Shown: in pieces, positions 5,120-37,716 of the stretch | How the letters are laid out: every line of letters starts with the position of its first letter | How positions within the stretch are numbered: position 1 is the first letter of the stretch | From: Actinomycetota bacterium | Lineage (GTDB): Bacteria > Actinomycetota > Coriobacteriia > Anaerosomatales > D1FN1-002 | Direction of reading: 5' to 3' | Assembly (NCBI GenBank): GCA_037445995.1 | Contig: JBBIJK010000004.1 | Coordinates: forward strand, 30,451-94,450 | DNA length: 64,000 bases | Made by a program: the position numbers and the translations under genes | The notes under the pieces: generated by a model | Database searches by the model: none | Seen by the model: the letters and a program-made list of their open reading frames with translations, nothing else | Told to the model about the DNA's origin: nothing

Positions 5120-5126
5120 TCGCCAG

Positions 5127-8410: not shown

Positions 8411-8414
8411 CGCG

Positions 8415-9509: not shown

Positions 9510-9550
9510 CGGCCCCGACCAGTCCCGCCGGCTTGGGAAAAGGAGTCAAC

Positions 9551-10600: not shown

Positions 10601-11536
10601 ATGCCGGACCAGCCTGATACCGCGCGGATATCGACTCGCTCCGGCTTGGTGCGGATCGCCGCGGCGGCCACCGTATGGGGCTCGATACCGCTGTTCGTGC
10701 GCTGGGTGGACGCCTCCCCGCTGGTCATCGTGTTCTGGCGGCTGGTGTTCGAATGCGGCGCGCTGGCTGTCGTCATGGCCCTGAGGGGCACATCGCGCGA
10801 GTTCCTGACCCTCCCGGCTCGGACGCGGGCGGTGCTTGCCGGGATGGGGGCCCTGCTGGCCCTGAACTGGGTGCTGTTCTTCATCGGCCTGAAGCTCACC
10901 GACGTCGCCGTCGCGGTGCTGCTCGCCTACACCGGCCCCATCCTGGTCGCCGTCCTCGGACCGCTGATCCTGCGAGAGCCGCGAGACAGGCGGCTGGCGG
11001 CACCGCTCGCCCTGGCCGCGCTCGGGACCGCGCTGGTCGTCTCCCCCGGCGGACTGTCGCTCGATGCGCGGCACATCGCCGGTGCGGCGGCCGCCCTGGC
11101 GTCGGCGTTCACCTACGCGGCCCTCGTCCTGAACGCCAAACGCCTCATCCGCGGGATTTCCACCGACGTGTACATGCTGGCCGAGAGCCTCGCCGCCGCG
11201 CTGCTGCTCCTCCCGGCCGCACTGCTCCTTCCCAGCCCCGACTCCGCGCGCGAATGGGTCGGCCTGGCCACGCTCGGCATCGTGCACACCGCGCTGACGG
11301 GCATGCTGTTCCTGTCGGGACTGCGCGCGGTGAGGGCCGATCACGCCGCCGCGCTGACCTACGCCGAGCCGGCGGCGGCCGTGCTGTTCGCTGCGGCCTT
11401 CCTTGGCGAGCCGATCACGGTCACGTCGGCCGCCGGAGGGGTCGCCATCGTGTGCGCGGGCGTCGCGGTCGCCAGGCTGAGGCCCGTGGCAGCACCGGAG
11501 CAGATGCCGGCCGCAGGCCCCCCCTCCACCGCCTAA
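10601..11536 (+). CDS. EamA/DMT-family transporter
   Basis: 311 aa, about 10 TM helices in two EamA-like halves (WGSIPLFVR..., LFLSGLR...). Confidence 0.78.
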   Translation: MPDQPDTARISTRSGLVRIAAAATVWGSIPLFVRWVDASPLVIVFWRLVFECGALAVVMALRGTSREFLTLPARTRAVLAGMGALLALNWVLFFIGLKLTDVAVAVLLAYTGPILVAVLGPLILREPRDRRLAAPLALAALGTALVVSPGGLSLDARHIAGAAAALASAFTYAALVLNAKRLIRGISTDVYMLAESLAAALLLLPAALLLPSPDSAREWVGLATLGIVHTALTGMLFLSGLRAVRADHAAALTYAEPAAAVLFAAAFLGEPITVTSAAGGVAIVCAGVAVARLRPVAAPEQMPAAGPPSTA

Positions 11537-11631
11537 CTCCACCGCGACCAGACCCCTGCTCCAAGGGAAGGTCCCGCGCTGGCTGCCCGCGTCCGTTACT
11601 ATCGGGTGGAACTCACGACGGCGGAGGCTTG

Positions 11632-13275
11632 ATGGACTCTCTCGATCGCCTCATCGAAGCGGGAGCTGTCGAGCGCCTGCGGCAGCGGGACGCCTCACTG
11701 TTCGCCACGGACTACGACCGCCGCAAGAGGGTCATGCAGCGGCTCGGCTGGACGGACCTCGCCCACAAGGCCCCTTCGCGTTTCACGCTGCTGGACAACC
11801 TCGCGTCCCAGGTCGCCGCCGAGGGCTGCACGGACGTCGTCCTGGTCGGGATGGGCGGGTCGTCACTGGCGCCCATGGTCTTAGGGGAGGCCCTCGGGGG
11901 CCGGACGCCCGGCGCCCCGAGACTCCGCGTGCTGGACACAACCTGTCCCCGGACCGTCTTCGCGCTGCAGGAGGAGCTCGAGCGAGACACCACCTTCCTG
12001 GTCGTCTCGTCAAAGTCCGGGACCACAATCGAGCCGCTGTCCCTCTACGCCATACTGCGCGCCTGGCTGGAGGAGGGTATGGAGCGCCCCGACGCCGGCC
12101 GCCGCTGCATGGTCGTCACCGATCCCGGCAGCCCGTTGGAGGCCCTGCGGCTCCGGGAGGTGATGCGCCTCACTTTGCACGGGGTGCCCAGCGTGGGCGG
12201 CCGCTTCTCGGCACTGTCGATGTTCGGGCTGGCTCCCGCCGCGCTGGCCGGGGTCGACATCAGGGGCCTGGTAGAGAGAGCCCAGCGGATGGAGGTCGCG
12301 TGCGGCAGTCCGGCGGAGGCCAACCCGTCTGCGCTTCTCGCCGCCTGGCTTTCCGACCGATTCGATGAAGGTCGCGACAAGCTCACGCTGGTGTGTTCCG
12401 AGAGCCTCCGCTCGTTCGGGCTCTGGATCGAGCAGCTCATCGCCGAATCGACCGGCAAAGGGGGGGTGGGCGTCGTCCCGGTCCCCGAACTGCACACCGA
12501 GGACGCCCCGTCATACGGAGACGACCGCGCAGTCGCCATCGTCAGACTGGCAGCGGACACGCGACTGGCCGATTGGGCGGTTGTCACGGGGAAGCGGCAT
12601 CCAGTCTTCGAGATCGTCCTGGACGACCCGCTGGACATCGGCGGCGAGTTCGTCCGGTGGATGCACGCAACAGCCCTCCTCGGACACCTGCTTGGGATCG
12701 ACCCCTTCGACGAGCCCGACGTGGCCGCGGCGAAAGAGGCTACCGGGAGGATACTGTCGGGGTCCGCATCCGCGCCGCAGGCCAGCGACGACCTCGGCGG
12801 GGTATGGGCAACGTTCGCGGGCGGCCTGGAGCGCCCGGCTCAGGTGGACTCTCTCGAAACCGCGCTTGAGAGCCTGATCGGCTCGATGGCGCCGCGGGAC
12901 TACCTCGCGCTGCTCGCCTACCTGCCGGAGGACGAGTGGCTGTGCGGCCCGCTTCGAGCCGGACTCCACAGCGTCGGCTCCGCGACCAAGCGCGCAACCT
13001 GCCTCGAGATGGGTCCCCGCTACCTGCACTCCACCGGGCAGCTTCACAAGGGCGGCCCCAACACCGGAGCGTTCCTGATGGTGACCGCGCGGGACCGCAT
13101 CGATTCACTGGTCCCAGGGAGCCGCTACACACTGGGCGGCCTGTTCAGGGCGCAAGCCGAAGGCGACCTGCTGACGTTGGCCGCTGCGGGCCGCCGCGTG
13201 CTGAGACTGGACCTGCCAGAACCCACACTCGGCGCCGTCGACCGGTTGGCTGGCGCCCTTCACAACGCGCGCTGA
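11632..13275 (+). CDS. pgi: Glucose-6-phosphate isomerase
   Basis: SIS-domain signature VVSSKSGTTIEP plus conserved ...GPRYLHSTGQLHKGGP. ATG 11632 is preceded by GGAGG. The 866-aa ORF-track entry is an artefactual upstream extension overlapping the EamA gene. Confidence 0.8.
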   Translation: MDSLDRLIEAGAVERLRQRDASLFATDYDRRKRVMQRLGWTDLAHKAPSRFTLLDNLASQVAAEGCTDVVLVGMGGSSLAPMVLGEALGGRTPGAPRLRVLDTTCPRTVFALQEELERDTTFLVVSSKSGTTIEPLSLYAILRAWLEEGMERPDAGRRCMVVTDPGSPLEALRLREVMRLTLHGVPSVGGRFSALSMFGLAPAALAGVDIRGLVERAQRMEVACGSPAEANPSALLAAWLSDRFDEGRDKLTLVCSESLRSFGLWIEQLIAESTGKGGVGVVPVPELHTEDAPSYGDDRAVAIVRLAADTRLADWAVVTGKRHPVFEIVLDDPLDIGGEFVRWMHATALLGHLLGIDPFDEPDVAAAKEATGRILSGSASAPQASDDLGGVWATFAGGLERPAQVDSLETALESLIGSMAPRDYLALLAYLPEDEWLCGPLRAGLHSVGSATKRATCLEMGPRYLHSTGQLHKGGPNTGAFLMVTARDRIDSLVPGSRYTLGGLFRAQAEGDLLTLAAAGRRVLRLDLPEPTLGAVDRLAGALHNAR

Positions 13276-13292
13276 GCCTCAGCGGAAAGCAG

Positions 13293-13324
13293 AGGCGCCA
13301 GCCCGCGTATGCGGACCGGCGCCT
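13293..13324. terminator. Bidirectional hairpin between convergent pgi and the symporter gene
   Basis: AGGCGCC-agc-CCGC-gtat-GCGG-acc-GGCGCCT, i.e. 7 bp + 4 bp stems. There is no clear U-tract. Confidence 0.4.
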
Positions 13325-13344
13325 CACAGCGAACGCGGATCGTG

Positions 13345-15192
13345 CTACTTGCTCTTGAGCAGCCCGCCGACCTTGTCCAGACCGTGATCGCGCTCGTACC
13401 GCTCGTGGGCGGTGCCGTGGATGCGCATCCAGATCTCGTCGACGTTCTTGGGAAGCTGACCGTCGAGCTTGCTCACGACGATGATGGTGAGAAGCCCGAG
13501 CGGGAAGGTGAACAGCACGGGGAAGGTCAGAGACCCGAGGAAGCCGACGAGGCCTTCCTTGCCGACATGCCCGAGCTGCTGGAGGATGTTGAGCACGATG
13601 ACGCTGATGGAGCTCGTCAGGCCGACGACCATGCCTGCGATGGCGCCGCGCTCCGTCGCACCCTTCCACCAGATGCCCGCGAGCAGCATCGGCACGAAGG
13701 CCGACGCGCTGACGGAGAACGCCCACGTGACCATCATCGCGATCAGCGCCGGGTAGGCCTGGTCCAAACCGAGGTATGGGATGCCCAAGCCGATGAGGAG
13801 CGAGATCAGCGAGATGATGATGACAGACGTCTTGCCCACGAAGACCTTCTTGGCCTCGGAGGCGCCGGGGTTGATGTACTTCTCGTACACATCGTGTCCG
13901 ATGGACGCGGAGGCCGCGATGAGCAGTCCGCCGATGGTCGAGAACATGGCCGCGAAGGCGCCGGCAGCCACGACTCCCATCAGGAACTCGCCGCCAAGGA
14001 GCCTGCCCAAGGTGGGCATGACCGCGTCAGGCCTTATGAGCAGGCCGTTGACGTAGTCAGCCGTCGCGGGGGCGTTGCCCGCGGCCACAGCCGCCTTGAT
14101 GGCGTGGAGCCCGGCGATACCCGCGATCGGGGTCATGATGTAGAACGTGCCGATGAATACGAGGACCCAGAAGGTCGAGCGGCGAGCCGCCGACCCCGAG
14201 GGGTTCGTGTAGTACCTGTTGAGGATGTGCGGGAGTCCCGCCGTGCCAAGAACCAGCGCGAGGACCATGGAGAACTGGTCGAACGCGTTGTAGCGGTGAC
14301 CCGGCTCGTTGAGGAGCATCTCCCGAGTCTCGTGAAGCTTGTTCTTCGACGGCAGGGCGACGTTCACCTTGGCGGCAGGATCGCCGGCCGCTATGGCCGC
14401 CTCGACCTTCGCGAGATCCGCCGGGTCAGAATGCTCGGCCATGATCTTCCTGGCGCTGTCGATAGGCGCCTTACCGGTGGCGGGGTTGACCTTCGTCAGC
14501 TCGCCCACCGTCATCTTCTTGGTGTTGATGATGGGAGAGCCGCTGGCGCGCTTGAGGGCGTCCTGATAGTTGAAGCCGCCTCCGAACGCGAACGCCACGA
14601 CGAGGAACATCGCGAACCACAGCCACCAGAACTGGAATATCTGGTTGAGGGTGGTCCCCTTCATGCCGCCCATGGCGACGTAGAACATCATGACCACGGT
14701 GACGACGACGACACCCGAGTTGTAGGGGTCCATCCCGAAGATGCCTTGGCCCACCAGCACCCTCCAGGTGGTGCCAGATCCGAACATCTGCGGCGCCATG
14801 TAGAAGAAGCATGTGATCAGGACGCACAACACCGCCACGAGCCTGATGCGGTGGCTGCCGAACCGCCCGAACGCGAAGTCCGGGATGGTGTACTCACCGA
14901 AGCGGCGGAGCGCCGAGGCGATGAAGATGATGACGACCATGAAGCCGCCGGCGAATCCGGCGGCGAACCACACGCCGTCCAGCCCCGAGGCGTAGATCGC
15001 TCCGGCGACGCCGAGGAATGACGCCGCGGACAGGTAGTCGCCCGAAATCGCGGAGGCGTTGGCGAAGGAGCCGACCTTGCGGCCCGCCAGGTAGAAGTCC
15101 GCCGTGGTGCGGGTGAAGCGCCGCGAGAAGATCGAGAGCCCGATCGTGAAGGCCACGAGCACGACGACCAGGACGATGGCTAGAACGTTCAT
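13345..15192 (-). CDS. Sodium:solute symporter family transporter (ActP-like cation/monocarboxylate symporter)
   Basis: 615 aa, polytopic. N-terminus ...ADFYLAGRKVGSFANASAISGDYLSAASFLGVAG is typical of the SSS family. The start overlaps the stop of a DUF485-like gene. Confidence 0.87.
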   Translation of the reverse strand: MNVLAIVLVVVLVAFTIGLSIFSRRFTRTTADFYLAGRKVGSFANASAISGDYLSAASFLGVAGAIYASGLDGVWFAAGFAGGFMVVIIFIASALRRFGEYTIPDFAFGRFGSHRIRLVAVLCVLITCFFYMAPQMFGSGTTWRVLVGQGIFGMDPYNSGVVVVTVVMMFYVAMGGMKGTTLNQIFQFWWLWFAMFLVVAFAFGGGFNYQDALKRASGSPIINTKKMTVGELTKVNPATGKAPIDSARKIMAEHSDPADLAKVEAAIAAGDPAAKVNVALPSKNKLHETREMLLNEPGHRYNAFDQFSMVLALVLGTAGLPHILNRYYTNPSGSAARRSTFWVLVFIGTFYIMTPIAGIAGLHAIKAAVAAGNAPATADYVNGLLIRPDAVMPTLGRLLGGEFLMGVVAAGAFAAMFSTIGGLLIAASASIGHDVYEKYINPGASEAKKVFVGKTSVIIISLISLLIGLGIPYLGLDQAYPALIAMMVTWAFSVSASAFVPMLLAGIWWKGATERGAIAGMVVGLTSSISVIVLNILQQLGHVGKEGLVGFLGSLTFPVLFTFPLGLLTIIVVSKLDGQLPKNVDEIWMRIHGTAHERYERDHGLDKVGGLLKSK

Positions 15193-16795: not shown

Positions 16796-17503
16796 TCAGA
16801 TGCCCAGCGCGCGCTTGAGCGACGGAACGCGCCGGCGCGAGACCGGCACCTGGCTGGCGTCCTTGTCCTTGAGCGTGAGAAGGAGCGTGCCCCCGTACAT
16901 CGGCACCACCTCGCTGACGTGCGAGAGGTTGACAAGGAAGCGCCTGTGCACCCTGAAGAAGCCACGAGAGCCCAGACGCGTCTCCAGCTGAGCCAGGGAG
17001 GTGGTGGACAGATATCTCTCACCGTCCGTGTACAGGTAGGAGTAGTCGTCCTTTGCCATCACGTAGAAGATGTCCCCCACTTCAAGGAGCAGCTTCTTAC
17101 CCGCCTTCTCAACCGGTATCCGCTCGAAGCGCGCCGCGGGCTCGGAGGGGCCGACCCGCTCGATGGCCTGTCTGAGGCGGGGGATCTCGACGGGCTTGAC
17201 CAGGTAGTCCACCGCCGCGACCTCGAAGGCCTTCACGGCGTGCTCGCTGTGCGCGGTCACGAAGACCACGGAGGGCGGGTGCTCCATGTTCGCGATCAGT
17301 TCGGCGAACTGGACCCCGGACAGGCCGGGCATGTCGATATCTAGGAACACTACGTCGTAGGGGACCACCTTGATCAGCTGCAGGGCCTCCAGCGCGTCGG
17401 AAGCCTCACCCAGCACCTCCACGCCGCCGGCCTCGCCCAACAGGTACCGCAGCTCGGAACGCGCGGGCGCCTCGTCATCCACGATCAGTGCCTTCATCGG
17501 CAT
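16796..17503 (-). CDS. LytR/AlgR-family response regulator (REC + LytTR DNA-binding domain)
   Basis: REC domain (ALIVDDE...DVVFLDIDMPGLSG) and a C-terminal LytTR-like region (...FFRVHRRFLVNLSHV...). Confidence 0.9.
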   Translation of the reverse strand: MPMKALIVDDEAPARSELRYLLGEAGGVEVLGEASDALEALQLIKVVPYDVVFLDIDMPGLSGVQFAELIANMEHPPSVVFVTAHSEHAVKAFEVAAVDYLVKPVEIPRLRQAIERVGPSEPAARFERIPVEKAGKKLLLEVGDIFYVMAKDDYSYLYTDGERYLSTTSLAQLETRLGSRGFFRVHRRFLVNLSHVSEVVPMYGGTLLLTLKDKDASQVPVSRRRVPSLKRALGI

Positions 17504-18822
17504 GGCGTTCCCGCCTCGCCCGCCCGGTCCGCGGAGAAGATGTCCATCGTGATCTCCGTGCCCTCCCCTTCTACGCTGGCCACCGACAGACCTGAGCCCT
17601 TTCCGAAGTGACCACGCAGTCTATCGTCCACGTTCTTGAGCGCGATGCCTAGCCCCTTGCCGAAACCAGGCTCCAGCACCCGCGGCAGAACGGCGGCGGG
17701 AATCCCGACACCGTCGTCGGTCACCGAGACCCGCAAGCCGTTCTCGCACCGCGTCGCGGCGATCGTGATGGTCAGCCTTCGCCCTGTGGGCAACGCATGC
17801 TGGACGCAGTTCTCCACGACCGGCTGAAGAAGGAAGGAGGGGACGACGGCGTCGAGCGCGGCTGACTCCACGGACTCGATAACCTGGAGCCGGGGACCGA
17901 AGCGTGCGTGCTCGAAGCGAAGGTAGCTTCTGGTGAACTCCAGCTCCCGCTCGAGGGTGACCAGGGGGCCCGAACTCTCCAGCGTCCTGCGATAGAAGGA
18001 AGCGAACTCGCGCAGGAGCACGCGCGCCTCGGTGGGGTCGGTGCGGATGAGGCTGGCTATCGTGTTTATGGTGTTGAACAGGAAGTGCGGGTGTATCTGC
18101 GCCTGGAGCGCCTGGAGTTCCATGCGCGTGGCCAGCGCTGTCTGGCGGTCCAGCTCGGACAGTTCAAGCTGCGTCGACAGCAGCGTGGCGAGGCCCTGCG
18201 CGGTCGTCACCTGCGTCTCGTTGAGAAGGCGGGGGGTCGTGTAGTAGAACTTGAGCGTCCCCGCCGGGACGCCCCGAACCACCAGTGGGACGACTATCGC
18301 CGCCTTGAGCAGGCACCGCTCCAGCGGGCACCCGATCTCTTGCTTGCTGACCAGGATGCGATGCTCCACGGACTCCAGGGCCTCGCGTGTCGCCCTCGTG
18401 ATGATGGGCCGCCCGGGCAGGTGGTGCTCCTGGCCCAGCCCGGCGAACCCGAGGACACGGGTCGTGTCGGTGATCGCCACCGCCGCCGCCTCCATCTCCC
18501 TGAGCGCGATGTCGCACACCGCCTGGGCGGTATCGGCATCGAGGCCGCGCCTCATGTGCGCGAGGCTGCGATTGGCGATCTCGAGGATCCTGTGGGACTG
18601 CTCGGCCTGGATATGGTCAGGGCGCGTCAGGAAGCGGGCCGCCAGTGAACCGACCGAGATGATGGTCAGGCCCCCGAGCGCGGCAGTGACGACGTACTCG
18701 GGGACGGGCATCACAAGTGCAACCACGGCGGTAAGCGCGATGGCGGTGACGGTCACCGCTATCAAGGCGTCGATCACGACCGCCTGCACCGTGAAGAACC
18801 TCTGTCCCGACCGCTCCCTCAC
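17494..18822 (-). CDS. LytS/YehU-type sensor histidine kinase (2 TM + GAF + His_kinase + HATPase)
   Basis: The IHPHFLFNTINTI H-box is typical of the LytS family, with a GAF-like segment upstream and a C-terminal GxGxG ATPase (DDGVGI...GKGLGIAL). It overlaps the RR gene by 10 nt. GTG start follows GGAGGGA. Confidence 0.85.
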   Translation of the reverse strand: MRERSGQRFFTVQAVVIDALIAVTVTAIALTAVVALVMPVPEYVVTAALGGLTIISVGSLAARFLTRPDHIQAEQSHRILEIANRSLAHMRRGLDADTAQAVCDIALREMEAAAVAITDTTRVLGFAGLGQEHHLPGRPIITRATREALESVEHRILVSKQEIGCPLERCLLKAAIVVPLVVRGVPAGTLKFYYTTPRLLNETQVTTAQGLATLLSTQLELSELDRQTALATRMELQALQAQIHPHFLFNTINTIASLIRTDPTEARVLLREFASFYRRTLESSGPLVTLERELEFTRSYLRFEHARFGPRLQVIESVESAALDAVVPSFLLQPVVENCVQHALPTGRRLTITIAATRCENGLRVSVTDDGVGIPAAVLPRVLEPGFGKGLGIALKNVDDRLRGHFGKGSGLSVASVEGEGTEITMDIFSADRAGEAGTPCR

Positions 18823-18943
18823 GAGACCGTCCCTCCGACCCGCCCTCCGTCACCGAGTATCCCCGGCGACGGTCGGACGAGTATATTGCATCGGCGAGAC
18901 GCGCCGTGCTCGGCCGTGGAGCACCGACGGCTCCCGGTGCCGT

Positions 18944-19690
18944 TCAGCCAGCCAGGCGGCTGACCAGCAACCACGCGCCGACCGCCGCGAACAAGCCCGC
19001 GAGCAGGCCGCGGATGAGGCGCTCGTCGACACGGTGGGCGATGGCGGCCCCCGCCAACGCGCCCGGGAGCGTCCCGGCGGCAAGCGGTCCGGCTAACGCC
19101 CAGGAGATCTCGCCGACCCATGCGTGCATCAACGCCGACGGCGCCGCGAGGAACGGGATCGCCGCGAGACTGGTGCCCACCGCGCGGCCGGTTGGCATCC
19201 CGAGGAAGCGTCTGAAGACCGGGACCATCAGGAAGCCGCCACCCACCCCGACCAGTCCCGCGATCAGGCCGGCCGCCGCGCCGGCCGCGGCTGGCGCGGC
19301 GAGCTTGAGGGGCCCCTTGGACGCCGCGGACGGCGGGCGTTCCAGGGCCGTCATCGAGACCGCCGACCAGAGCAGGACGACCCCCAGAGCGAGGGCAACA
19401 ACGTCGTCACCCAATCGGTCCCCGAGCAACGAACCGACGGCGCCGGTACCCGACCCCGACAACCCGGCGATACACGCCACCCGGACGTCTACCTTCCCGG
19501 CGCGATGATGGGCCAGCGCGCCGGCCAACGCGGCTGGCAGCACGGCCGCGAGCGAGGTGCCCACCGCCGCAAGCGCACCGAGTCCGATACCGAGATAAAG
19601 GGCCGGGGTGAGGACGATCCCGCCGCCAATCCCCAGCATCCCCGACAGCACGCCGGCCAAGACGCCGAGGGCGACGACGCCGACCGCCAT
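18944..19690 (-). CDS. TauE/SafE (TSUP) family anion permease
   Basis: 248 aa with repeated GxGGG motifs (GMLGIGGGIV, GLVGVGGGFL), 7-8 TM. Confidence 0.8.
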   Translation of the reverse strand: MAVGVVALGVLAGVLSGMLGIGGGIVLTPALYLGIGLGALAAVGTSLAAVLPAALAGALAHHRAGKVDVRVACIAGLSGSGTGAVGSLLGDRLGDDVVALALGVVLLWSAVSMTALERPPSAASKGPLKLAAPAAAGAAAGLIAGLVGVGGGFLMVPVFRRFLGMPTGRAVGTSLAAIPFLAAPSALMHAWVGEISWALAGPLAAGTLPGALAGAAIAHRVDERLIRGLLAGLFAAVGAWLLVSRLAG

Positions 19691-21730: not shown

Positions 21731-22741
21731 CTACTCCCTGATCCCGAGATCCGCGCCGCAGGCCGAGCAGATCCCGCCCGAGGTCCGCTTCGCAACCACC
21801 GAGTACCCGCGCCGCGTCACGGCCGTGGCCCCGCACGATGGACAAACCGTGTCCTCGAACCCACCGTCCGCCACATTCCCAAGGTACACGAAGCGCAACC
21901 CCTCACCTGTGGCGAGCTCCCGCGCCCGCCATAGGGTCTCGAACGGGGTCGCGGGTACGTGCGCCATGTCCAGGCACGGAAAGAACCTGGTGACGTGCCA
22001 CGGGGTGTCCTCCCCCAAAGCGTCCCTTATCCAGCCGGCGATGCCGCGGATCTCCGCTTCGCCATCGTTGATGCCAGGGACGACATTGGTGACGACCTCC
22101 ACGTGCATACCCCAGTGGTGCTTCGCGCGGACCGCCGCATCCAGCACCGGCCGCGCCGACGGCACCTTGCACAGCTCGTGGTAGCCTCGGTCGTCGAAAG
22201 CCTTGACGTCGACGCGCCAGACGTCCACCAGGGGACCGAGCAGGTCCAGAGCCTCGGGCGTGACGTATCCGTTCGTTACCATGACGGTGAAGAGGCCCTC
22301 ACCGCGGCAGATGGTGGCGACATCCAGCACGTACTCGAGCCAGATCACAGGCTCGTTGTAGGTGAAAGCCACGCCCGGGCATCGGTGCGCCCTCGCCAAG
22401 CGGACGGCGCCGTCGGGGTCCATGTGCCCGGCGTCCGGCACGTCTCCGGGGGCCGCTCGGCTGATCGACCAGTTCTGACAGTGACCGCACCTCATCGAGC
22501 AGCCCACGCTGCCTAGCGACAGCACCCGTGCTCCTGGGTGGTAGTGGAATACCGGCTTCTTCTCTATCGGGTCCGCCGCCACCGACGTGACGAGGCCGTA
22601 GGACAGGGGCTCCAGGACCCCGCCGGAGTTGCGCCTGACCCCACATCGGCCGACGTGCCCGTCAGCGATCAGGCAGCGGTGCGGGCAGACGGCGCATCTG
22701 ACCTTGCCAGCCTCGCCGGACCACAGCAGCGCCTCACGCAC
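21731..22741 (-). CDS. Radical SAM enzyme, AmmeMemoRadiSam/PflA-like activase type
   Basis: N-terminal Cys cluster (RCAVCPHRCLIADGHVGRCGVRRN), DPIEKKP, the CSMRCGHCQNW CxxxCxxC SAM cluster motif, and a C-terminal Zn-ribbon (CPSCG...CSACG). Confidence 0.85.
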   Translation of the reverse strand: MREALLWSGEAGKVRCAVCPHRCLIADGHVGRCGVRRNSGGVLEPLSYGLVTSVAADPIEKKPVFHYHPGARVLSLGSVGCSMRCGHCQNWSISRAAPGDVPDAGHMDPDGAVRLARAHRCPGVAFTYNEPVIWLEYVLDVATICRGEGLFTVMVTNGYVTPEALDLLGPLVDVWRVDVKAFDDRGYHELCKVPSARPVLDAAVRAKHHWGMHVEVVTNVVPGINDGEAEIRGIAGWIRDALGEDTPWHVTRFFPCLDMAHVPATPFETLWRARELATGEGLRFVYLGNVADGGFEDTVCPSCGATAVTRRGYSVVAKRTSGGICSACGADLGIRE

Positions 22742-22749: not shown

Positions 22750-24582
22750 CTAATCCGGCGCGATCTCCACCCTGTCTCGCCCGTTCTCCTTCGCGCGATA
22801 AAGGGCCCTGTCAGCGGCCTCCAGCAGGCGGTCCGGCTCGACCCCGGCACCAGAGATGGCGGAGACGCCGACGGAGAGGGTGACCCGCGACACTCCGTCC
22901 GCCCCGCTGCCCCCGACACTGATCGCCCGAACCGCGCTCCTCAGCTTCTCGGCCACCGCGAACGCGGCCGTCTTGCCTATCCCGGGAAGGAGCACCCCGA
23001 ACTCATCCCCCCCATACCTTGAGGGGAGGTCGGTCCCTCTGAGCACCTTGGGGATGATCGCTCCGATGGACCGCAACACCGAGTCGCCGACCCGGTGGCC
23101 ATACGTGTCGTTGATCCCCTTGAACGCGTCCACGTCGACCATGAGCAGCGAGAGCTCTCCACCGTAGCGGTTGACCCGCTCGACCTCCTCCCTGAGCCGC
23201 GCCTCGAACTCACGGCGGTTCGGCAGCCCTGTCAGCGGGTCGGTGGTGGCGGCCTCCGCGAGCGCCGCGAGGCTAGCCTCCAGGCGCTCGGCTTGGCGAG
23301 GCCAGCACATGTCCCACGTCGACCTGCCCTGCGCGATCGCGACAGCGTGATCGGCGCAGGTTCTCTGGCCGCACGCGCCGCAGTCCAAGGCCTCATCCCG
23401 GGACGCCACGCCGCCCTCCGCGAGGATACGGTCGACCTCCTCAGGCGAAGGAACGACCGTCATCACCGGCGAAGCCGTGAACGAGCGGCGAAGGTCCGGC
23501 CGGGGGAGATAGGCCAAGAGGCGTCGGCATCCCACCGACGCCGCGGACCTCGACGCCTCGCCGTGGGCGACCGCGATGGTGCGCTTGGCGTGCACCGATA
23601 GCTGTGGGGCCACAGTGGGGCCGTCGATACACCCGTCGCAGTGCAACGTGTCGACCAGCGACGGGGCAGCCTCGCCGTCTGCGATGGCGTCCAAGAGGCG
23701 GTCGAGTGGCTCCAGACCGCGCACCACGGCCGTGTCCACCCGCGAGTCCCCCCCGCACTCCACGAACGAGCGCGGAAACCCGTCCGTCAGCGACACCTCC
23801 TTGAGCGGCGCGGGCCGGCGAGCGCCAGGCGGCTCGACGCCGGGCGCGAGCGGCGGCGCGTCCGCCAGGAGTTCCTCGAGCTCAGCGAAGTCGATCGCGG
23901 CGTCGACCGCGCCCCCGTACTGCGGATCGGAGCAGTCGTCCTTGCGGGCGAAGCACGGACTCACGTACACGACGACCGTGCCTTCGGGATAGAGCGACTT
24001 CACGAGCTTGGCTTGCGCGATGTAAGGGGGGACCAGGGGCACGAGGGCGCCGGTCAGCTTGGGGTGGAAGCGAAGGACCCACGACACGACCACCGGGCAT
24101 GTCGACCTGATGGCGGGCATGTGCTCCCGGCCCACCACCAGACGCTCGAACTCGGATGCGACCATCTCCTCGCCGAGCAAGGTGGTCTCGACGGCGTGGA
24201 AGCCCATCGCCTCGAGCGCGCACTCTAAGTCGCGTGTCGTCTTGGGATGCAGAGCTGCGACCGCCTCCGTCGCGAGGACGGCGACCACCGGTCCGCCGCC
24301 GTGGAGCAGCGCCCGGACCGCGGCGGTGTCATCCCTGACCACATGGCCGCGAAAGCCGCACTCCTTGACGCACGCCCCGCAGGAAACGCATCTCTCGTGG
24401 ATCACGAGCGTCCCGGCCTCGGAGACGCCGATCGCGCCGGCGGGGCAAACCCGGACGCAGCCACGGCATCGACGGCAGTCGTCCTCCTGGTGCTGTATCA
24501 GCCGGCGGCCGACATGCCTGCGCGTCGACCCGGACCGGGACACCGGCTCCGAATCACCCCAAGGCAGCGGCTCGCTGCTCAC
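22750..24582 (-). CDS. Fusion protein: 2x[4Fe-4S] ferredoxin + [FeFe]-hydrogenase-like (H-cluster/Nar1-type) domain + CxxCGxxxC Fe-S domain + GGDEF diguanylate cyclase
   Basis: CRRCRGCVRVCP / CVSCGACVKEC ferredoxin motifs. H-domain motif equivalents are RSTCPVVVSW (L1), VSPCFARKDD (L2) and LHCDGCIDGP (L3), followed by DCGACGQRTCADHA. The C-terminal GGDEF has RYGGDEFGVLL. GTG start overlaps the queT-like stop (GTGA). Confidence 0.8.
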   Translation of the reverse strand: MSSEPLPWGDSEPVSRSGSTRRHVGRRLIQHQEDDCRRCRGCVRVCPAGAIGVSEAGTLVIHERCVSCGACVKECGFRGHVVRDDTAAVRALLHGGGPVVAVLATEAVAALHPKTTRDLECALEAMGFHAVETTLLGEEMVASEFERLVVGREHMPAIRSTCPVVVSWVLRFHPKLTGALVPLVPPYIAQAKLVKSLYPEGTVVVYVSPCFARKDDCSDPQYGGAVDAAIDFAELEELLADAPPLAPGVEPPGARRPAPLKEVSLTDGFPRSFVECGGDSRVDTAVVRGLEPLDRLLDAIADGEAAPSLVDTLHCDGCIDGPTVAPQLSVHAKRTIAVAHGEASRSAASVGCRRLLAYLPRPDLRRSFTASPVMTVVPSPEEVDRILAEGGVASRDEALDCGACGQRTCADHAVAIAQGRSTWDMCWPRQAERLEASLAALAEAATTDPLTGLPNRREFEARLREEVERVNRYGGELSLLMVDVDAFKGINDTYGHRVGDSVLRSIGAIIPKVLRGTDLPSRYGGDEFGVLLPGIGKTAAFAVAEKLRSAVRAISVGGSGADGVSRVTLSVGVSAISGAGVEPDRLLEAADRALYRAKENGRDRVEIAPD

Positions 24583-25145
24583 CCGTCCCTCGACATCCCC
24601 TCGAACACCCCGGCCAAGCCGGTGCGACGCATCGCCGCGAGCAGCGGCCAGCCCAATCCGTAGACGACGAGAACCTGACCCGCGCCTACAGCGGCCATGC
24701 CGAGAAGGTACATCGCGAACCAGGAGTCCTCAAGCCTCCAGCCAAGCGCCGGTATGTCGTAAAAGCCGCTGCCAGCCAGGATAAGGGGCAGGTACGCTGG
24801 CACTATCAGGGCGTTGGCCACGACCGGCCCGGCGAGCGCCACGCCCGTGCGGCCTCGCATCCGCCAGCTCCAGGCGGCGCCCGCCAGCGACCCGAGCGGG
24901 CCGAAGACCATGTCCAGCCAGCCCATGGGCTGCGAGAGGTTCCACGCGTTGGCTATCAGCGCCCCGAGCCACAGCCCGGGGATCGCGGCGGGCGTCACGC
25001 ACCCCAGCACTGTGAGCGCCTCGCTGATCCGAAGCTGGACGGGCCCCCAGGCCAGGGCCTGGAACGTGGAGAGCGTGAGAAGCGTGGCGGCGGCGTAGAG
25101 GGCCGCGATCACTCCGGCCTGTGCGACGAGACGTGAGGCGCGCAA
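24579..25145 (-). CDS. QueT-family (ECF S-component-like) membrane transporter
   Basis: 188 aa, about 5-6 TM. AALYAAATLL...GPVQLRISEALTVL...IPGLWLGALIAN matches QueT-family hallmarks as I remember them. TTG start after GGAGA. Confidence 0.7.
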   Translation of the reverse strand: MRASRLVAQAGVIAALYAAATLLTLSTFQALAWGPVQLRISEALTVLGCVTPAAIPGLWLGALIANAWNLSQPMGWLDMVFGPLGSLAGAAWSWRMRGRTGVALAGPVVANALIVPAYLPLILAGSGFYDIPALGWRLEDSWFAMYLLGMAAVGAGQVLVVYGLGWPLLAAMRRTGLAGVFEGMSRDG

Positions 25146-25210: not shown

Positions 25211-27334
25211 TCACATCGGGAGCCGCCGCTCCTCTCGCCGGTCCACCGCGAGCAACCCTGTCATGCCCGCTGCCACCTGGGCGTCGAGGATCCTCGACAT
25301 CGCCGCCACCACAGCCGGGTCGAACTGGCTGCCGGCGCCCCGCTCGAGCTCGGCGCGGGCGGCCATGGGAGGCAGCGCGGCCCTGTAAGCGGAATCGCTG
25401 GTCATGGAGTCGTAGGCGTCGGCGACCGCCAGGATCCTCGCGGCCAGCGGGATGTCCTCGCCCGTAAGTCTCATCGGGTACCCTTCGCCGTCCCATCGCT
25501 CGTGGTGGTGCAGGACGATCGGTGCGACGGCATTCAGGAACTCGACCTGCTCAAGGAGGCTGGCGCCGATCTGGCTGTGCATCATCACCCGGTCCATCTC
25601 ACCCTCGGAGAGCTTCGAGGGCTTGAGGAGGATCTCCTCGGAGACGCCCACCTTGCCGATGTCGTGGAGCAGCCCGGCGAAACGCAACGCCTCGACCTCC
25701 TCGAAGACAAGGCCAATCTCCTCCCCCAGCGCGACAGCGTAGTCCATGACCCGCTTGGAGTGACCGGCCTCGCGGCGCTCGCTGGCGTCCAAGGCCGTCG
25801 AGAGGGCGGCCAGCGCCCGGGTGTAGTCGTCACGCAGTCGCCCGAACAGCGCCGCCCGATCGAGCGCCGGCCCCACCTGAGCCGACATCTGCCACAGCAG
25901 CCGCTCGACCGACGCGTCGAAATCTCCGGGCCGGTCCGACGCGACGAACAGTGCGCCGATGCCGACGTCGCGTACGGTCAGCGGCACCGAGAGCACGGTC
26001 CACTCCTCGCACACACGCTCGTCGCCCAGGAGAAGGTCGCCCTCCCGGACGACGACGCGGGCAGTGGGCGCCGACGGCACGATCGCGACCCCTGAGGCCT
26101 CCTCTGTGACGGCCGCAATGTCGTGAGCGCCGACGTCGCCGCGCGCGAACAGGGACGCGCACTCCTGCGCGTGACCCGAGAGGACGATCCCGCCGATACG
26201 CAGGTCCACGCTCTTCTCCAGGACCTCGCCCACCAGCCTCACCACGTCCTCAGCGGCGACGTCCCCCTGCAGCAGGCGGGCCAGCTCGACCAGGCTGGCG
26301 GTCCTTGCGAACTCCCGTTCGCCAGCCGCCATCGCAGCGCCAAACCGCAACCCTGGGCCGACGAGCTTGGCGAACTCCTCGATCGCGTCGACGACCCGGC
26401 CTTGGACCGGACCGACTTCCCGGGGGAACGACAGCTCGAAGACCCCCGTGAGCGAATCGCCGTCGAACACAGGCGAGCACAACGAAGCGCCCTCGCTCGG
26501 GTCCATGCCGGAAGCCACCACGACCGAACGCCCGGTCGCGGCCGCGTGACCGGCCGGCCCCTCGCCGACGCGGGAGAGCGAGCCGACGGTACCGGAGGGC
26601 CTGCCGCCCGACGCGGCGACCACCTCCAGCAGGTCCGAGCCCGGCCTGCGAACCCTCAGGGTCCCGCCTTCCGCTCCGACCAGAGCGATCGCGAGGGCTA
26701 AGGCGCCAAGGCCGGCCTGCTCCCCGGCCAGCTCCCCATCGACGAGCGCGCGGAAGGCCGACGACGTCGCGGCGACGGCTCTGCCGGCGGCGAGAGCCGC
26801 CTCGCGGTCCCGCGCAGCCGCGATCGTGGCCGCGGCATGCGTCGCCACCATGAAGGCGATCGAAGCCGCCCGCTTGTGGCTGATGACAGGCACCGAAACC
26901 AGCGCCTGTCGGGCCTGCGCTTCGCTGGCTCCGCGAGCCAGCAGCTGCTCGAAGAGCCGACGCCGCTCGCGAGTGGATGTGACGAAGCCCGCGATGACGA
27001 CGTGAAGTTCCGGATCGGCGCCCTCGACCCGCTGGAAGTAACACGCGAAGCCCGATCGGCAGAAGCTCCTCCAGGAGTCGCCAGCCGCCCAAGGCGGGGC
27101 GTCGAAGCACTCCGAGACGACCTCGGGCCTGGAGTCGCCGGGGTGCAGGGTGTGGCAGTACGGCCCGCGCGGTCCCGAGTGCACGAACATCCCCGCAGCC
27201 AGATCCGCGACCGCCACGCTGACACCCATGGTGTCGAAGAGCGTCTCCGTCCAGACACGCCAGTCATCCGACCGGAACATCGAGATGTGCTGGCGCTCTT
27301 CGGGCGGCAACGTTCCTCCTCGCAGGGCGGGCAT
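25211..27334 (-). CDS. Cys-rich (PocR-like?) sensor + 2x GAF + HD-GYP c-di-GMP phosphodiesterase
   Basis: HD-GYP motifs LLHDIGKVGV and HHHERWDGEGYP. Two GAF-like segments. The N-terminal ~170 aa have conserved Cys (YCHTLH, SFCRSGFACYF). Confidence 0.83.
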   Translation of the reverse strand: MPALRGGTLPPEERQHISMFRSDDWRVWTETLFDTMGVSVAVADLAAGMFVHSGPRGPYCHTLHPGDSRPEVVSECFDAPPWAAGDSWRSFCRSGFACYFQRVEGADPELHVVIAGFVTSTRERRRLFEQLLARGASEAQARQALVSVPVISHKRAASIAFMVATHAAATIAAARDREAALAAGRAVAATSSAFRALVDGELAGEQAGLGALALAIALVGAEGGTLRVRRPGSDLLEVVAASGGRPSGTVGSLSRVGEGPAGHAAATGRSVVVASGMDPSEGASLCSPVFDGDSLTGVFELSFPREVGPVQGRVVDAIEEFAKLVGPGLRFGAAMAAGEREFARTASLVELARLLQGDVAAEDVVRLVGEVLEKSVDLRIGGIVLSGHAQECASLFARGDVGAHDIAAVTEEASGVAIVPSAPTARVVVREGDLLLGDERVCEEWTVLSVPLTVRDVGIGALFVASDRPGDFDASVERLLWQMSAQVGPALDRAALFGRLRDDYTRALAALSTALDASERREAGHSKRVMDYAVALGEEIGLVFEEVEALRFAGLLHDIGKVGVSEEILLKPSKLSEGEMDRVMMHSQIGASLLEQVEFLNAVAPIVLHHHERWDGEGYPMRLTGEDIPLAARILAVADAYDSMTSDSAYRAALPPMAARAELERGAGSQFDPAVVAAMSRILDAQVAAGMTGLLAVDRREERRLPM

Positions 27335-31956: not shown

Positions 31957-34500
31957 TCAGCGGCCTCGGCGCAAGCGCATCCGCTGCGCGGTGGCGCGCA
32001 TCCGCTCAGACATGCGATCGAGCGCCTCGGCGTAGAAGTGGTCGACCAGTGTCGCGCCCGAGGTCCGCTCGATGAGGGCGCAGAGGAGCGTGAGCGCCTC
32101 CCGCATCGCCTCGACCTCGGTCTCCAGGTCGCGCCCCTCACCCCCGGACACGCTCATACGGCCGCCCGCAAGCTTGAACGGCAGGCGCCCGGCTTCGATA
32201 GCCTCGGTGAGCCTCTCCTCGAGGTTCACCGCCAGTTTCGGGCCGCCCAGCCGACGGTAGCTGGTGAACATGCCGTCGCAGAGAGCCACGAACACCGCGC
32301 GGGCTTCGTCCCGCTCATACCCCGCGCCGTGACCCGCCGATTCCGCCACGGGCCCGGAGTGCGCCCGGAGCGCCTTGACGAAAGCGTCGACGACCCTGGC
32401 ATCGAACTGAGTGCCCGCGCACCTCTCAAGCTCGCCGATGGCCTCGTCGGCATCGCGCCCTGCGCGGTAGGGCCGGTCAGAGATCATGGCCTCATATGCG
32501 TCTGCGACAGACAGTATCCTCGCAAGCAGAGGTATCTCCTCGCCTTTGAGCCCCGCGGGATAACCCCGACCATCCCAGTGCTCGTGATGGTGCCGAACCA
32601 CGGGGGTGATGGGCCAGGGGAACGCGACCGGGCGCAGGATGTTGGCGCCTATAAGCGGATGATGCCGCATCTGATCCATCTCGTCCTCGGTCAGGCGACC
32701 CGGCTTGAGCAGGATGCCCTCCTTGACGCCGATCTTGCCGATGTCGTGAAGGTACGCCGCCATCTCCAGCGCGATCCTCTGCTCCGAGGACAGGCCCATA
32801 GCCTCGCCGATGGTCTTGGCGTACTCAGCCACGCCGTCCGAGTGGCCGCGGGTATAGGTGTCCTTTGCGTCGACCGCGGCCGCCAGCGACCTGACGGTGG
32901 CCAGGTAGGCGTCTTGCAGCGAGGTGAACAGCTCGATGTTGCCGATGGCGATGGCAACGTGGTTGGCGACCGTCAGAAGCAGCCTCACATCCTCAGACCC
33001 GAACCTGAAGGCCGGGTCGTGAGTGCCCACCGTTATCGCGCCGATCGCGCCCTCCGGGCCCATCAGCGGCGCTGACACAGCGGCGGCGGACCCGGTGACG
33101 GCGTCGACCTGCTGGTCCTTCCCGCCCGTCGAGGGGTTGAATATCAGCGGCCGCCCCTCCCTGACGACCCACTCGGCCATGGACCCGGTGAGGGCGTGGG
33201 CGTCCGCACGCTGCTCGCGCGGGCCGCGGATGGCGCGGGTCACGAGCTCGCCGGTCTCCCTGTCACGGAGGCTGACGTAGCCGCTCTCCACGTCGAATAT
33301 CCGCAACGACGACTCGAGCACTGAGCCCACGAGTTCGTCGAGGTCGAACGTCGATCCCAGTGACCTGCTCATCTCGTACAAAGTCGCAAGCTCCAGGACC
33401 TTCTTCGTCAGATGCTCGGTCCTCTCGCGAAGGGACTGCGTCATCTGGTTGAAGCTCTCGCCCAGAGCGCGTATCTCAGTCGCACCGGCGAGCGCCACCT
33501 TCGTGGCGAAATCGCCCTCCGCGACCCGCCGCGCGCCGACGGCGAGCCCGCCGAGCGGACCCGACACGCTCTGGGCGATCCAGACGCCTAGACCCGTCAG
33601 AAGCACGACGGCGAACACCGACCACATGGTGATCAAACGGATGGTCGTGGACGTCGCCCTGTCGGTGACCTCGGTGCTCATCAGCGCCACGAGGCGTCTC
33701 TCCGCCGCGCTCGGATCCCCGGGCAGCGTCACGACCGTGGACACGAGGTGGTAACTTCCAGAACCGGTCTTGACCGTATCGGACGCGCGCGGCCCTTCGG
33801 GGATCCGCGCGGACAGAAGACCGCCCTTGTGACTCGCGTCGCCGAACACCTCACGCGAGACGGGGTCCGACACCGACGGGGACCGCGCGGCGAGGCGGCC
33901 TCGATCGTCGTACAGCCCGAACAGGCCGTCGGCCCCGGAGGTCACCCGTTTGAGCAGCCGGTCGTCCAGCACGTCGGCCACGACCAGCACTTCCCCCCCG
34001 GCCCCCAGCGGCCTGACGGCCGCGACCGTGTCGACATCGTTCACACGGGCGAAGGTCAGGTACGATCCCGCGCCGCCTGACCCGATGTCGCGCCCGAGAG
34101 GCCTGTCACCGGGGTCGACCCCGGTGACCCAGCTCACTCCCGCCACGACCCGGCCCTGCCGGTCGAGAACCAGGATCATGTCGGCGTCGACGGCCCTGTT
34201 GACGGACGCGAGCACCGCGCGCAGCGACCCGGGGTCCCGGCGCGCAAGCGCGTCCGTCACCCGCTCGTCCCTCGTCACCAGGGCACCGACATCGGCGAGC
34301 CGCTCACCCGCCTCCGCGATGCGCCCGGCGGTGGCTAGCGCCAGGGAGTCGGAGCTCCTGTCGACCCACCCGTCTGTGAGCTCAGTGAGGAGGAGGACCG
34401 CCACGATCGTCGCCACGATGCCCACCGTGACGGCGACGAGGACGAGCGGTAGCACTATCTGATAGTGGAGCCGTCCGAAGGCGCTCCCGAACCTGCTCAT
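31957..34500 (-). CDS. Membrane sensor (extracytoplasmic domain) + HAMP + GAF + HD-GYP phosphodiesterase + ~170-aa unassigned C-terminal domain
   Basis: LHDIGKIGV and HHHEHWDGRGYP. There is a HAMP after the second TM and a GAF between. Start moved to ATG 34500 (GGAAGGG RBS) because 34501-34560 has poor GC3 and contains a promoter-like GTGCTAGAAT. Confidence 0.83.
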   Translation of the reverse strand: MSRFGSAFGRLHYQIVLPLVLVAVTVGIVATIVAVLLLTELTDGWVDRSSDSLALATAGRIAEAGERLADVGALVTRDERVTDALARRDPGSLRAVLASVNRAVDADMILVLDRQGRVVAGVSWVTGVDPGDRPLGRDIGSGGAGSYLTFARVNDVDTVAAVRPLGAGGEVLVVADVLDDRLLKRVTSGADGLFGLYDDRGRLAARSPSVSDPVSREVFGDASHKGGLLSARIPEGPRASDTVKTGSGSYHLVSTVVTLPGDPSAAERRLVALMSTEVTDRATSTTIRLITMWSVFAVVLLTGLGVWIAQSVSGPLGGLAVGARRVAEGDFATKVALAGATEIRALGESFNQMTQSLRERTEHLTKKVLELATLYEMSRSLGSTFDLDELVGSVLESSLRIFDVESGYVSLRDRETGELVTRAIRGPREQRADAHALTGSMAEWVVREGRPLIFNPSTGGKDQQVDAVTGSAAAVSAPLMGPEGAIGAITVGTHDPAFRFGSEDVRLLLTVANHVAIAIGNIELFTSLQDAYLATVRSLAAAVDAKDTYTRGHSDGVAEYAKTIGEAMGLSSEQRIALEMAAYLHDIGKIGVKEGILLKPGRLTEDEMDQMRHHPLIGANILRPVAFPWPITPVVRHHHEHWDGRGYPAGLKGEEIPLLARILSVADAYEAMISDRPYRAGRDADEAIGELERCAGTQFDARVVDAFVKALRAHSGPVAESAGHGAGYERDEARAVFVALCDGMFTSYRRLGGPKLAVNLEERLTEAIEAGRLPFKLAGGRMSVSGGEGRDLETEVEAMREALTLLCALIERTSGATLVDHFYAEALDRMSERMRATAQRMRLRRGR

Positions 34501-34550
34501 CAGGCCCTTCCGTCGACTGCGGGGTTGTGTCAGAGGACCGTCCGCGCCCG

Positions 34551-34560
34551 ATTCTAGCAC
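34551..34560 (-). promoter_or_regulatory. Extended -10 element GTGCTAGAAT upstream of the HAMP-GAF-HD-GYP gene
   Basis: The same 10-mer as at 25182-25191. It sits about 50 nt upstream of ATG 34500. Confidence 0.4.
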
Positions 34561-37575: not shown

Positions 37576-37716
37576 CCTCGCGAAGGACGCGATTCGGGGA
37601 TAATCAAGCCATGACACGCTGCGGAGACCACGTGATCGCGCTCACCGCCGCAGCCGCCGTGTCGATTCGCGCCGGCACCTCCGAGAGGTGGCCGGACGGC
37701 AAGGGGGGTGCGCTCC

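Follow-up and report, generated by a model that had tools for sequence, protein, structure and literature searches.

The 64,000-nucleotide stretch analysed here (the window; contig JBBIJK010000004.1 of an Actinomycetota bacterium) carries on its reverse strand, at 22750..24582 (-), a gene for a 610-aa protein in which an iron-sulfur (Fe-S) sensor region resembling the sensory [FeFe] hydrogenases (HydS) is joined to a GGDEF diguanylate cyclase. An original prediction, made from the letters and their open reading frames (ORFs), had read this protein as four parts; its coordinates proved exact, each of the motif strings it quoted (CRRCRGCVRVCP, CVSCGACVKEC, RSTCPVVVSW, VSPCFARKDD, DTLHCDGCIDGP, DCGACGQRTC and RYGGDEFGVLL) is found in the translation, and the ORF list and the Pfam architecture agree with it. 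From the N-terminus, the modules are two ferredoxin-type [4Fe-4S] motifs, an [FeFe]-hydrogenase large-subunit domain (Fe_hyd_lg_C, here the H-domain), a Cx2Cx4Cx16C cluster motif, a helix and a GGDEF domain with an RxxD I-site. Translation starts at a GTG that overlaps, within the sequence GTGA, with the stop codon of queT, the gene upstream. Since this junction lies behind a purine-rich stretch and close homologues share the N-terminal start M-S-x-E-P, the gene model can be taken as sound. A promoter and terminator scan of 21.0-29.2 kb gave no signal exceeding the shuffled expectation.

The ferredoxin-type domain (24355..24495, -) matches Fer4_10, Fer4_7, Fer4_9 and Fer4 at residues 30-76 and holds the motifs C36/39/42/46 and C65/68/71/75. 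The H-domain follows at residues 99-322 (23617..24288, -) with an Fe_hyd_lg_C score of 96.6 bits (cut-off 22.1, E 2e-27) over profile positions 3-245 of 245, and the hydrogenase-like nature first assigned to this central region is thus borne out over nearly the full profile. The accessory cluster motif, C401-x2-C404-x4-C409-x16-C426 (23299..23388, -), is matched by FeS (PF04060) at residues 399-427 with 29.3 bits against a cut-off of 23. These Pfam matches are far beyond chance, and the existence of hundreds of conserved homologues rules out a chance ORF or a mis-annotation. The structural model of the protein (AF2) has a mean predicted local distance difference test score (pLDDT) of 85 and a predicted TM-score (pTM) of 0.73; in Foldseek its N-terminal 440 residues resemble the [FeFe] hydrogenases 8a6t_A, DdH and 7p8n, with a query TM-score (TMq) of 0.45-0.48 over ~440 columns.

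The GGDEF domain covers residues 445-604 (22771..23250, -; PF00990 151.8 bits, TIGR00254 172.7 bits). The catalytic GGDEF motif at residues 524-528 (22999-23013, -), the metal- and guanine-binding residues D483, D485, N491 and D500, and the RxxD sequence R515-G-T-D518 (23029-23040, -), five residues upstream of GGDEF, are all there, and the R and D of the I-site are kept throughout the core family. We therefore predict that the cyclase is catalytically intact and that RxxD is a product-inhibition site. The C-terminal part of the model resembles the GGDEF domains of WspR, DgcB and DosC with a target TM-score (TMt) of 0.88-0.92 and a root-mean-square deviation of ~2 Å. Between the cluster motif and the cyclase lies a helix at residues 427-446 (23245..23304, -; DSSP on the AF2 model, pLDDT ~88-91), which may serve in signalling or as a dimer stalk. 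Among the fold matches are DgcB, which has a coiled coil of its own, WspR fused to a GCN4 zipper, and the bacteriophytochrome cyclase 5llw, in which a coiled coil joins sensor to cyclase. Like PadC, DgcB and WspR (TMt 0.79-0.92), the protein combines a GGDEF fold with a helix on its N-terminal side, and it has an I-site, but its sensor is a four-cluster Fe-S module and not a phytochrome, receiver or other domain.

A degenerate GGDEF motif (e.g. VADQF, HGDQF or GRTEW) is seen in 27 of the 121 aligned family members (~22%), among them P0024, P0057, P0060, P0062, P0100 and P0115, which keep the RxxD site, the 16 cluster Cys and the signature of the cleft described below. With such a motif, the output in those lineages cannot be synthesis of cyclic di-GMP (c-di-GMP), and these members are presumably non-catalytic, perhaps c-di-GMP-binding versions.

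A homologue search with residues 1-440 as the query returned 521 proteins. All of the best 120 clusters had Fe_hyd_lg_C and GGDEF, most also FeS and Fer4; the identity over the sensor part was 52-69%, and the named ones were metagenome-assembled genomes (MAGs) of Coriobacteriia or Actinobacteria. The protein itself is identical to one entry (P0001), the exact sequence of which was present on a 7.8-kb contig only, and its architecture recurs in over 120 clusters formed at 90% identity. In a scan with one genome per GTDB species, relatives were found in at least 102 genomes; among the 80 genomes listed, almost all were labelled as uncultured Coriobacteriia or Actinomycetota, with a few Eubacteriales, and EMTCatB1 from a biocathode (locus L071) is among the carriers listed, as are Anaerosomatales MAGs. 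Given a core family in at least 102 species-level genomes, the HydS-GGDEF fusion is not rare. The genome GCA_900174565 (locus L087) is not mentioned by Merino et al. in their work on Wood-Ljungdahl Actinobacteria.

Conservation was counted over the 121 aligned family sequences, and this is the sample meant where invariance in the family is mentioned. Thirteen of the 16 cluster Cys are strictly invariant: C46, the four Cys of the second ferredoxin motif, the four of the Cx2Cx4Cx16C motif, and the four that would ligate the H-cluster. The other three, C36, C39 and C42, deviate solely in four N-terminally truncated sequences and in one C39G. Outside the Cys, E106, E138, R159, S160, T161, P185, P186 and R213 are invariant.

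To place the sensor, a profile of the H-domain and cluster domain was run against 1.84 billion representatives and gave 3103 relatives, 441 of them below 1e-30, and the best 150 were aligned and sorted by the spacing of the L3 motif and the output domain. The TmHydS (M2f) architecture, with 46 representatives, has a CxGGC L3 and ~165 C-terminal residues, with PAS in most. Directly fused transmitters make up 59 representatives with CxGC: HisKA/HATPase in 34-35, a sigma54 activator in 11, a methyl-accepting chemotaxis protein (MCP) module in 4 and PAS in 7. The GGDEF-fused type has 26 representatives, with CxxC in the 17 full-length ones aligned. In these best 150, L3 spacing tracks output, CxGGC going with a PAS-only C-terminus and CxGC with a fused kinase, sigma54 activator, MCP or GGDEF. 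In an hhalign comparison the family matched the TmHydS-like PAS group at a probability of 100% and E 3e-66, over 353 collinear columns with 30% identity, the sole notable indel being the missing L3 residue. The sensor part is thereby shown to be of HydS ancestry. This is as first proposed, a sensory rather than a catalytic protein, and the NCBIfam models of catalytic hydrogenases stay far below their cut-offs (TIGR04105 106.6 against 450, TIGR02512 52 against 406, NF040763 49 against 765).

The Cx2Cx4Cx16C motif defines HydS groups C and D (PMC8163306, PMC13104023). Of the group C (M2f) characters, the protein has the two N-terminal [4Fe-4S] motifs, an H-domain without the C299 relay and the C-terminal Cx2Cx4Cx16C motif, though not the PAS domain. 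With respect to group D (M2e), S208 and the lack of PAS fit, but the CxxC, the altered APS and K358 sites and the fused GGDEF do not. Pfam detects no PAS domain in the protein, where the GGDEF comes after the cluster domain, whereas CxxxC relatives do have PAS. Protein Data Bank (PDB) sequence searches found no solved structure of the HydS or TamHydS type, the best matches being group A enzymes at 36-60 bits; they returned bacterial and algal hydrogenases only and no Nar1-type chain, which decides little, as the PDB may hold none. Nar1/NARFL is a precedent for an H-domain that retains a [4Fe-4S] cluster without the 2Fe subcluster; it keeps CxxxC and is not known to carry a signalling output. 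We set Nar1 membership aside, the nearest profile being the bacterial HydS group.

A neighbour-joining tree, with CpI as the root, unites 14 GGDEF representatives and 10 core family members in one clade with no other output type inside, and places three further GGDEF fusions (P0142, P0144 and P0202) among the kinase and MCP types. The comparison with known types brings out what is particular to this clade. The TmHydS-like PAS group has the same module order through to the C-terminal cluster, and the proton-relay Cys and M353/M497 are likewise replaced, but it has PAS where the protein has a helix and GGDEF, and CxGGC in place of CxxC; the protein also has ATE for the APS loop, Arg at K358 and PPY for the SPM loop. 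TamHydS is similar in having no PAS, in M353S and M497L and in the C-terminal cluster motif, but it retains APS, SPM, PCAAK (K358) and CIGGC, has no fused output and binds a functional H-cluster. The kinase-, sigma54- and MCP-fused proteins, which we take to correspond to HydDB [FeFe] groups C1 and C2, share the CxxC L3 and the direct fusion of a transmitter without PAS; unlike the protein, they retain APS, SPM and GPCxAKKxE, score 156-200 bits with Fe_hyd_lg_C, and have phosphorylation, transcription or chemotaxis rather than c-di-GMP as their output. One of them, P0154, is a HydS-like sensor with a sigma54 enhancer-binding module. In its locus (L091 5311-10128) it is followed directly by genes for NuoE-like and NuoF-like proteins, which usually act as HydC/HydB partners in bifurcating hydrogenases; it is another unlisted output class and has an obvious regulatory target.

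The residues of the H-cluster pocket were compared using the numbering of CpI; the CpI reference sequence used passed 19/19 numbering checks against the literature and matches the PDB segments printed by HMMER bar one residue of a variant entry. The TamHydS reference was translated by hand from a supplementary table of PMC13104023 damaged in optical character recognition, and passed checks at C20, E252 and C379. The four ligands came out as originally predicted, with C162, C210, C315 and C318 aligned to CpI C300, C355, C499 and C503 and invariant in 121/121. The three motifs around them are all altered. L1 reads R159-S160-T161-C162-P163 (24094..24108, -) for canonical TSCCP, with C162 as the ligand, T161 at the proton-relay Cys C299, where Thr had indeed been noted, and R159 at T297; R, S, T and C of RSTCP are invariant in 121/121, and this motif marks out the GGDEF-only clade. 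L2 reads S208-P-C210-F-A-R213-K214-D-D216 (23935..23961, -) for canonical MPCxxKxxE. Here the string and the Cys had been identified correctly, but the Lys noted at first (K214) occupies the K359 position, and the equivalent of K358 is R213; M353 is replaced by S208. L3 reads D311-T-L313-H-C315-D-G-C318-I-D-G-P322 (23617..23652, -), with L313 at M497. It had been read as ExMxCxxGCxxG, which is out of register: the spacing is CxxC (C315-D-G-C318) in 121/121, whereas CpI, TamHydS and T. maritima HydA have CxxxC, with one residue more.

Besides these motifs, the CpI loop A230-P231-S232, which contacts the proximal CN ligand, is replaced by A104-T105-E106 (24265..24273, -) in the alignment to CpI and TamHydS. 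E106 is found in 121/121, and Ser stands at this position in 86% of relatives outside the clade. The remaining equivalences are E138 for A272, P185 for S323, P186 for P324 and Y187 for Q325. Comparing 24 clade representatives with 110 other sequences, at sites at least 80% conserved in the latter, we found that the 110 retain A-P-S, S-P-M and G-P-C-x-A-K-K-x-E at 84-97%. The clade has Glu at S232 in 23/24 and at A272 in 21/24, Arg at T297, Pro for S323, Tyr for Q/M325, and Thr or Ser for P231. At K358 the clade has Arg in 14, Ala, Met and Lys in 2 each, plus Gln and His, while the relatives have 91% Lys; in the core family R213 is invariant. In the protein, the residues that hold the 2Fe ligands are thus replaced by T105, E106, Y187 and R213, where the relatives have P, S, M and K in 85-93% (n=110). 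In the AF2 model the remodelled sites sit directly after beta strands. In the CpI fold, the loops lining the H-cluster cleft follow those beta strands. Fe_hyd_lg_C scores run from 83 to 145 bits across the clade as compared with 156-201 in the relatives with a canonical pocket. The alignments show that the 2Fe cleft has been remodelled in a way that is particular to this clade and strictly conserved in it. The census of Greening et al. 2024 was filtered on an L3 CxxxC, "required to ligate the catalytic centre" (PMC11216029); with C-D-G-C the protein falls outside that filter.

The neighbourhood of the gene offers a transporter, a radical SAM (rSAM) enzyme and a possible opponent of the cyclase. 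Upstream and co-directional is a QueT-family membrane protein (24579..25145, -; PF06177, 112 bits), the stop of which overlaps the GTG start. Downstream, starting 9 nt past the stop, is an rSAM enzyme of the AmmeMemoRadiSam type (21731..22741, -; TIGR04337 304.5 bits, cut-off 220); no AMMECR1 or Memo gene was found near it, and no informative literature on it. The order queT-HydS-GGDEF-rSAM, adjacent and on the same strand, is found in 82/85 family loci, but long-range synteny is conserved generally among the related genomes, so this adjacency is weak evidence. Placed 65 nt from queT is a gene for a GAF-GAF-HD-GYP protein (25211..27334, -; HD_5 121 bits plus GAF), a probable c-di-GMP phosphodiesterase with a homologue in 31/85 family loci, which is possibly an antagonist encoded in the same gene string. 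The same rSAM subfamily lies downstream of P0136 (L005 9876-10919, 342.7 bits) and of P0142 (L092 2958-3536, a truncated fragment of 184.7 bits). More distant clade members have TauE and a LytS/LytTR pair nearby, and among them the rSAM persists in P0136 only.

Neither hydE, hydF or hydG nor a structural gene for an [FeFe] or [NiFe] hydrogenase was found in the 64-kb window. A search with the HydF of locus L092 over the window and 91 family loci, 1.61 Mb in total, found no HydF homologue either. What the window does have, 13 kb from the gene, is a [NiFe]-hydrogenase maturation region (2115-10558, +) with NikR, a CbiM/NikM-CbiQ-ABC Ni/Co energy-coupling factor (ECF) importer and a hyp cluster: HypF (5768-8116, +), a probable small HypC (~8116-8337, +), HypD (8337-9509, +; 507 bits) and a HypE-like AIRS protein (9356/9506-10558, +). 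The first cultured Anaerosomatales are reported to oxidise H2 and to have [NiFe] enzymes of groups 1i and 3b and HypABCDEF, [FeFe] enzymes and Hyd maturases being unmentioned (PMC9686372), and the EMTCatB1 study mentions NiFe hydrogenase only (PMC7943316).

Locus L092 provides the contrast. Its HydS-GGDEF protein, P0142, has the architecture of the window protein, a related GGDEF (51% identical to that of the window, as close as in outer clade members) and the same downstream rSAM subfamily, 7 nt after its gene and 52% identical to the window enzyme. It differs from the window protein in having a canonical pocket (APS, K358), a higher H-domain score (Fe_hyd_lg_C 181.5 bits) and HydF (TIGR03918, 490.5 bits) immediately upstream, at 5 nt. 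A scan of metagenome contigs gave 80 HydS-like loci, and L092 was alone in having a fused GGDEF, an adjacent HydF or the rSAM. P0142 is likely an outgroup of the GGDEF-only clade, and its state, a hydF-linked, H-cluster-bearing HydS-GGDEF, likely the ancestral one, as suggested by a single contig of 3.5 kb. Against 5.8 billion proteins, the L092 HydF had its best named matches in Negativicutes and other Bacillota; two named matches bear actinobacterial labels (Solirubrobacterales, Mycobacterium leprae) and none is labelled Coriobacteriia, which is uninformative for the lineage of the window.

The interpretation towards which we lean, tentatively and with not quite even confidence, is that of a HydS-derived Fe-S redox sensor that drives c-di-GMP synthesis and in which the 2Fe site has been lost or changed. 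A four-cluster Fe-S module inherited from sensory [FeFe]-hydrogenase-like proteins would then set the activity of the diguanylate cyclase. GGDEF domains must pair to make c-di-GMP, and the protein would be a dimer. When the cluster chain changes its redox or ligand state, the H-domain and the C-terminal cluster domain would be altered and the linker helices repositioned, so that the condensation of GTP to c-di-GMP is turned on or off; signalling through linker helices is the commonly accepted mode of action of cyclases linked by a helix or coiled coil. HD-GYP phosphodiesterases encoded nearby would degrade the product. With the 2Fe subcluster site of the clade lost or fundamentally changed, the input would be the cellular redox poise, either the pool of low-potential electrons or oxidants that react with Fe-S clusters, and not H2 at an H-cluster. 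In evolutionary terms, the probable ancestor of the clade is a HydS-GGDEF of the P0142 type, linked to hydF and a genuine sensor of H2; actinobacterial lineages dependent on [NiFe] hydrogenases would have kept it for redox sensing. An H2 input, as implied by the original prediction, is unsupported in the form in which it was put, the CxxC, K358R, S232E, A272E and T297R having been missed and no hydE/F/G being present in the 64 kb; in view of these pocket changes and missing genes, a link from H2 to c-di-GMP is possible but not the most likely reading.

It is nonetheless quite possible, even if we doubt it on balance, that the protein is a genuine H2 sensor with a complete H-cluster in a modified pocket and with HydEFG encoded elsewhere in the genome; splitting of H2 would reduce the cluster chain, switch the GGDEF dimer and so link ambient H2, by way of c-di-GMP, with decisions on biofilm or motility. 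What speaks for this also weighs against our preferred interpretation. The sensor is homologous over its full length to group C HydS, and it retains all four H-cluster Cys, invariant in the family, together with the equivalents of A230, P324, K359 and E361. M353S and M497L occur identically in TamHydS, which binds a working H-cluster (PMC8163306), and loss of C299 is normal for sensory enzymes. CxxC is common to the 59 kinase-, sigma54- and MCP-fused relatives in which the rest of the pocket is intact, so that CxxC alone does not exclude an H-cluster, and CxxC-type relatives are linked to hydrogenase operons, P0154 adjoining the NuoE/NuoF-like genes typical of HydABC operons. The Arg at the K358 position preserves the positive charge, and the invariant E106 and E138 could make an alternative proton path, a Glu-based path having been proposed for TamHydS (PMC8163306). 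The invariance of the remodelled residues is what would be expected of a functional site rather than of a decaying one. The probable outgroup P0142 lies within a hydF-hydS(GGDEF)-rSAM operon, and the hosts oxidise H2, with the hyp/nik cluster 13 kb away; since they live on H2, an H2 sensor would be biologically sensible. The absence of hydEFG, finally, is one of local loci and of papers that are silent, and not of whole carrier genomes. The case for H2 has to contend, however, with S232E, A272E, T297R and P231T/S and the lack of a strict K358 across the clade, with an H-domain markedly more divergent than in the canonical-pocket sensors, with the lack of hydEFG in the window and of any HydF homologue in 1.61 Mb including the family flanks, and with the mention of [NiFe] enzymes only in the papers on related or carrier organisms.

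The same cleft can be seen differently. The clade-specific residues are invariant in 121/121, and a cleft so remodelled (E106, E138, R159, R213, Y187, CxxC) might bind another cofactor or ligand and report on that, with the rSAM perhaps installing or modifying the cofactor and the QueT-family transporter supplying it. The same-strand queT-HydS-GGDEF-rSAM order in 82/85 loci, with its overlapping or 9-nt junctions, and the recurrence of the rSAM subfamily after the distant homologues P0136 and P0142 would agree with this. We consider it unlikely: general synteny makes the adjacency weak, several clade members are without rSAM and queT, and the enzyme belongs to the protein-activase-like TIGR04337 family, which nothing ties to cofactor synthesis. 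A bolder proposal, and in our estimate an improbable one, is that of an unrecognised major, GGDEF-only branch of sensory hydrogenases (RSTCP/Glu232/CxxC), in which the cleft would bind a di-iron or other non-canonical cofactor and translate the presence of H2, or of a related reductant, directly into c-di-GMP, the rSAM replacing HydE/HydG as a dedicated maturase or modifier. That the protein is a catalytic [FeFe] hydrogenase with merely an extra domain we regard as hardly credible in spite of its Fe_hyd_lg_C domain and four Cys ligands, for the proton-relay Cys is gone, the proton-path residues are not conserved, L2 and L3 are altered, and neither partner subunits nor maturases are nearby. This identity was rejected, as neither the motifs nor the NCBIfam cut-offs (TIGR04105, TIGR02512) fit it.

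Whichever input applies, the output seems to be new. The original prediction had held that a GGDEF output was not a described category, and in HydDB the [FeFe] group C is indeed linked to kinases, MCPs and phosphatases only, a diguanylate-cyclase link being given for [NiFe] group 2c alone (HydDB Table 1). Full-text literature searches found no description of an [FeFe]/HydS-GGDEF fusion, and reviews and recent papers on groups A-G (including PMC13104023, PMC8163306 and PMC11216029) do not mention cyclase or GGDEF outputs. The putatively cyclase-linked [NiFe] group 2c shares the proposed logic, from hydrogen-related sensing to c-di-GMP, but its metal centre and protein family are unrelated to those of the window protein, and HydDB says only that it is cyclase-linked. 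A 2026 study of TamHydS found its C-terminal cluster unresponsive to H2 (PMC13104023). The studied models TmHydS and TamHydS are without a measurable output, and a natural GGDEF fusion would give a simple enzymatic readout in the formation of c-di-GMP. The canonical, hydF-linked P0142 type and the remodelled RSTCP clade would be a natural pair for testing the pocket residues in 2Fe binding and signalling, and the pair and the readout together would help to test whether H2 is sensed by HydS modules and by what means. As judged from the best 150 representatives, a CxxxC census filter (PMC11216029) would drop the entire CxGC half, both the GGDEF clade and the CxxC sensors fused to kinase, sigma54 or MCP modules. 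In Anaerosomatales-type Actinobacteria, which are abundant in subsurface, sediment and biocathode communities, the fusion would connect redox or H2 status with behaviour under c-di-GMP control. In the [NiFe] group 2c, the hydrogenase and its cyclase are separate proteins.

Genes for c-di-GMP turnover are unusually dense around the fusion. Three HD-GYP proteins are encoded in the window: in addition to the GAF-GAF-HD-GYP protein (25211-27334, -) there are a HAMP-GAF-HD-GYP protein at 31957-34560 (-) and a GGDEF-HD-GYP protein at 60525-63221 (+). Several histidine kinases are encoded as well. Genes for a TauE-family permease and a LytS-type kinase/LytTR regulator recur at a distance of a few kb from HydS-GGDEF genes, at L005, L006, L087, L088 and L089 and in the window at 16796-19690; this recurrence across a clade with a GC content of 37-70% may reflect either functional association or deep synteny. 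Elsewhere in the window, a ~1.8-kb interval at 11536-13345 has no ORF with the usual codon-position GC pattern and no Rfam match. A small signal recognition particle (SRP) RNA lies at 37452-37547 (-), followed by a gene for a bacterial eRF1-like (baeRF) protein at 37708-38865 (+), and both polyphosphate kinases, PPK1 and PPK2, are encoded, at 39364-41607 (-) and 48949-49806 (-).

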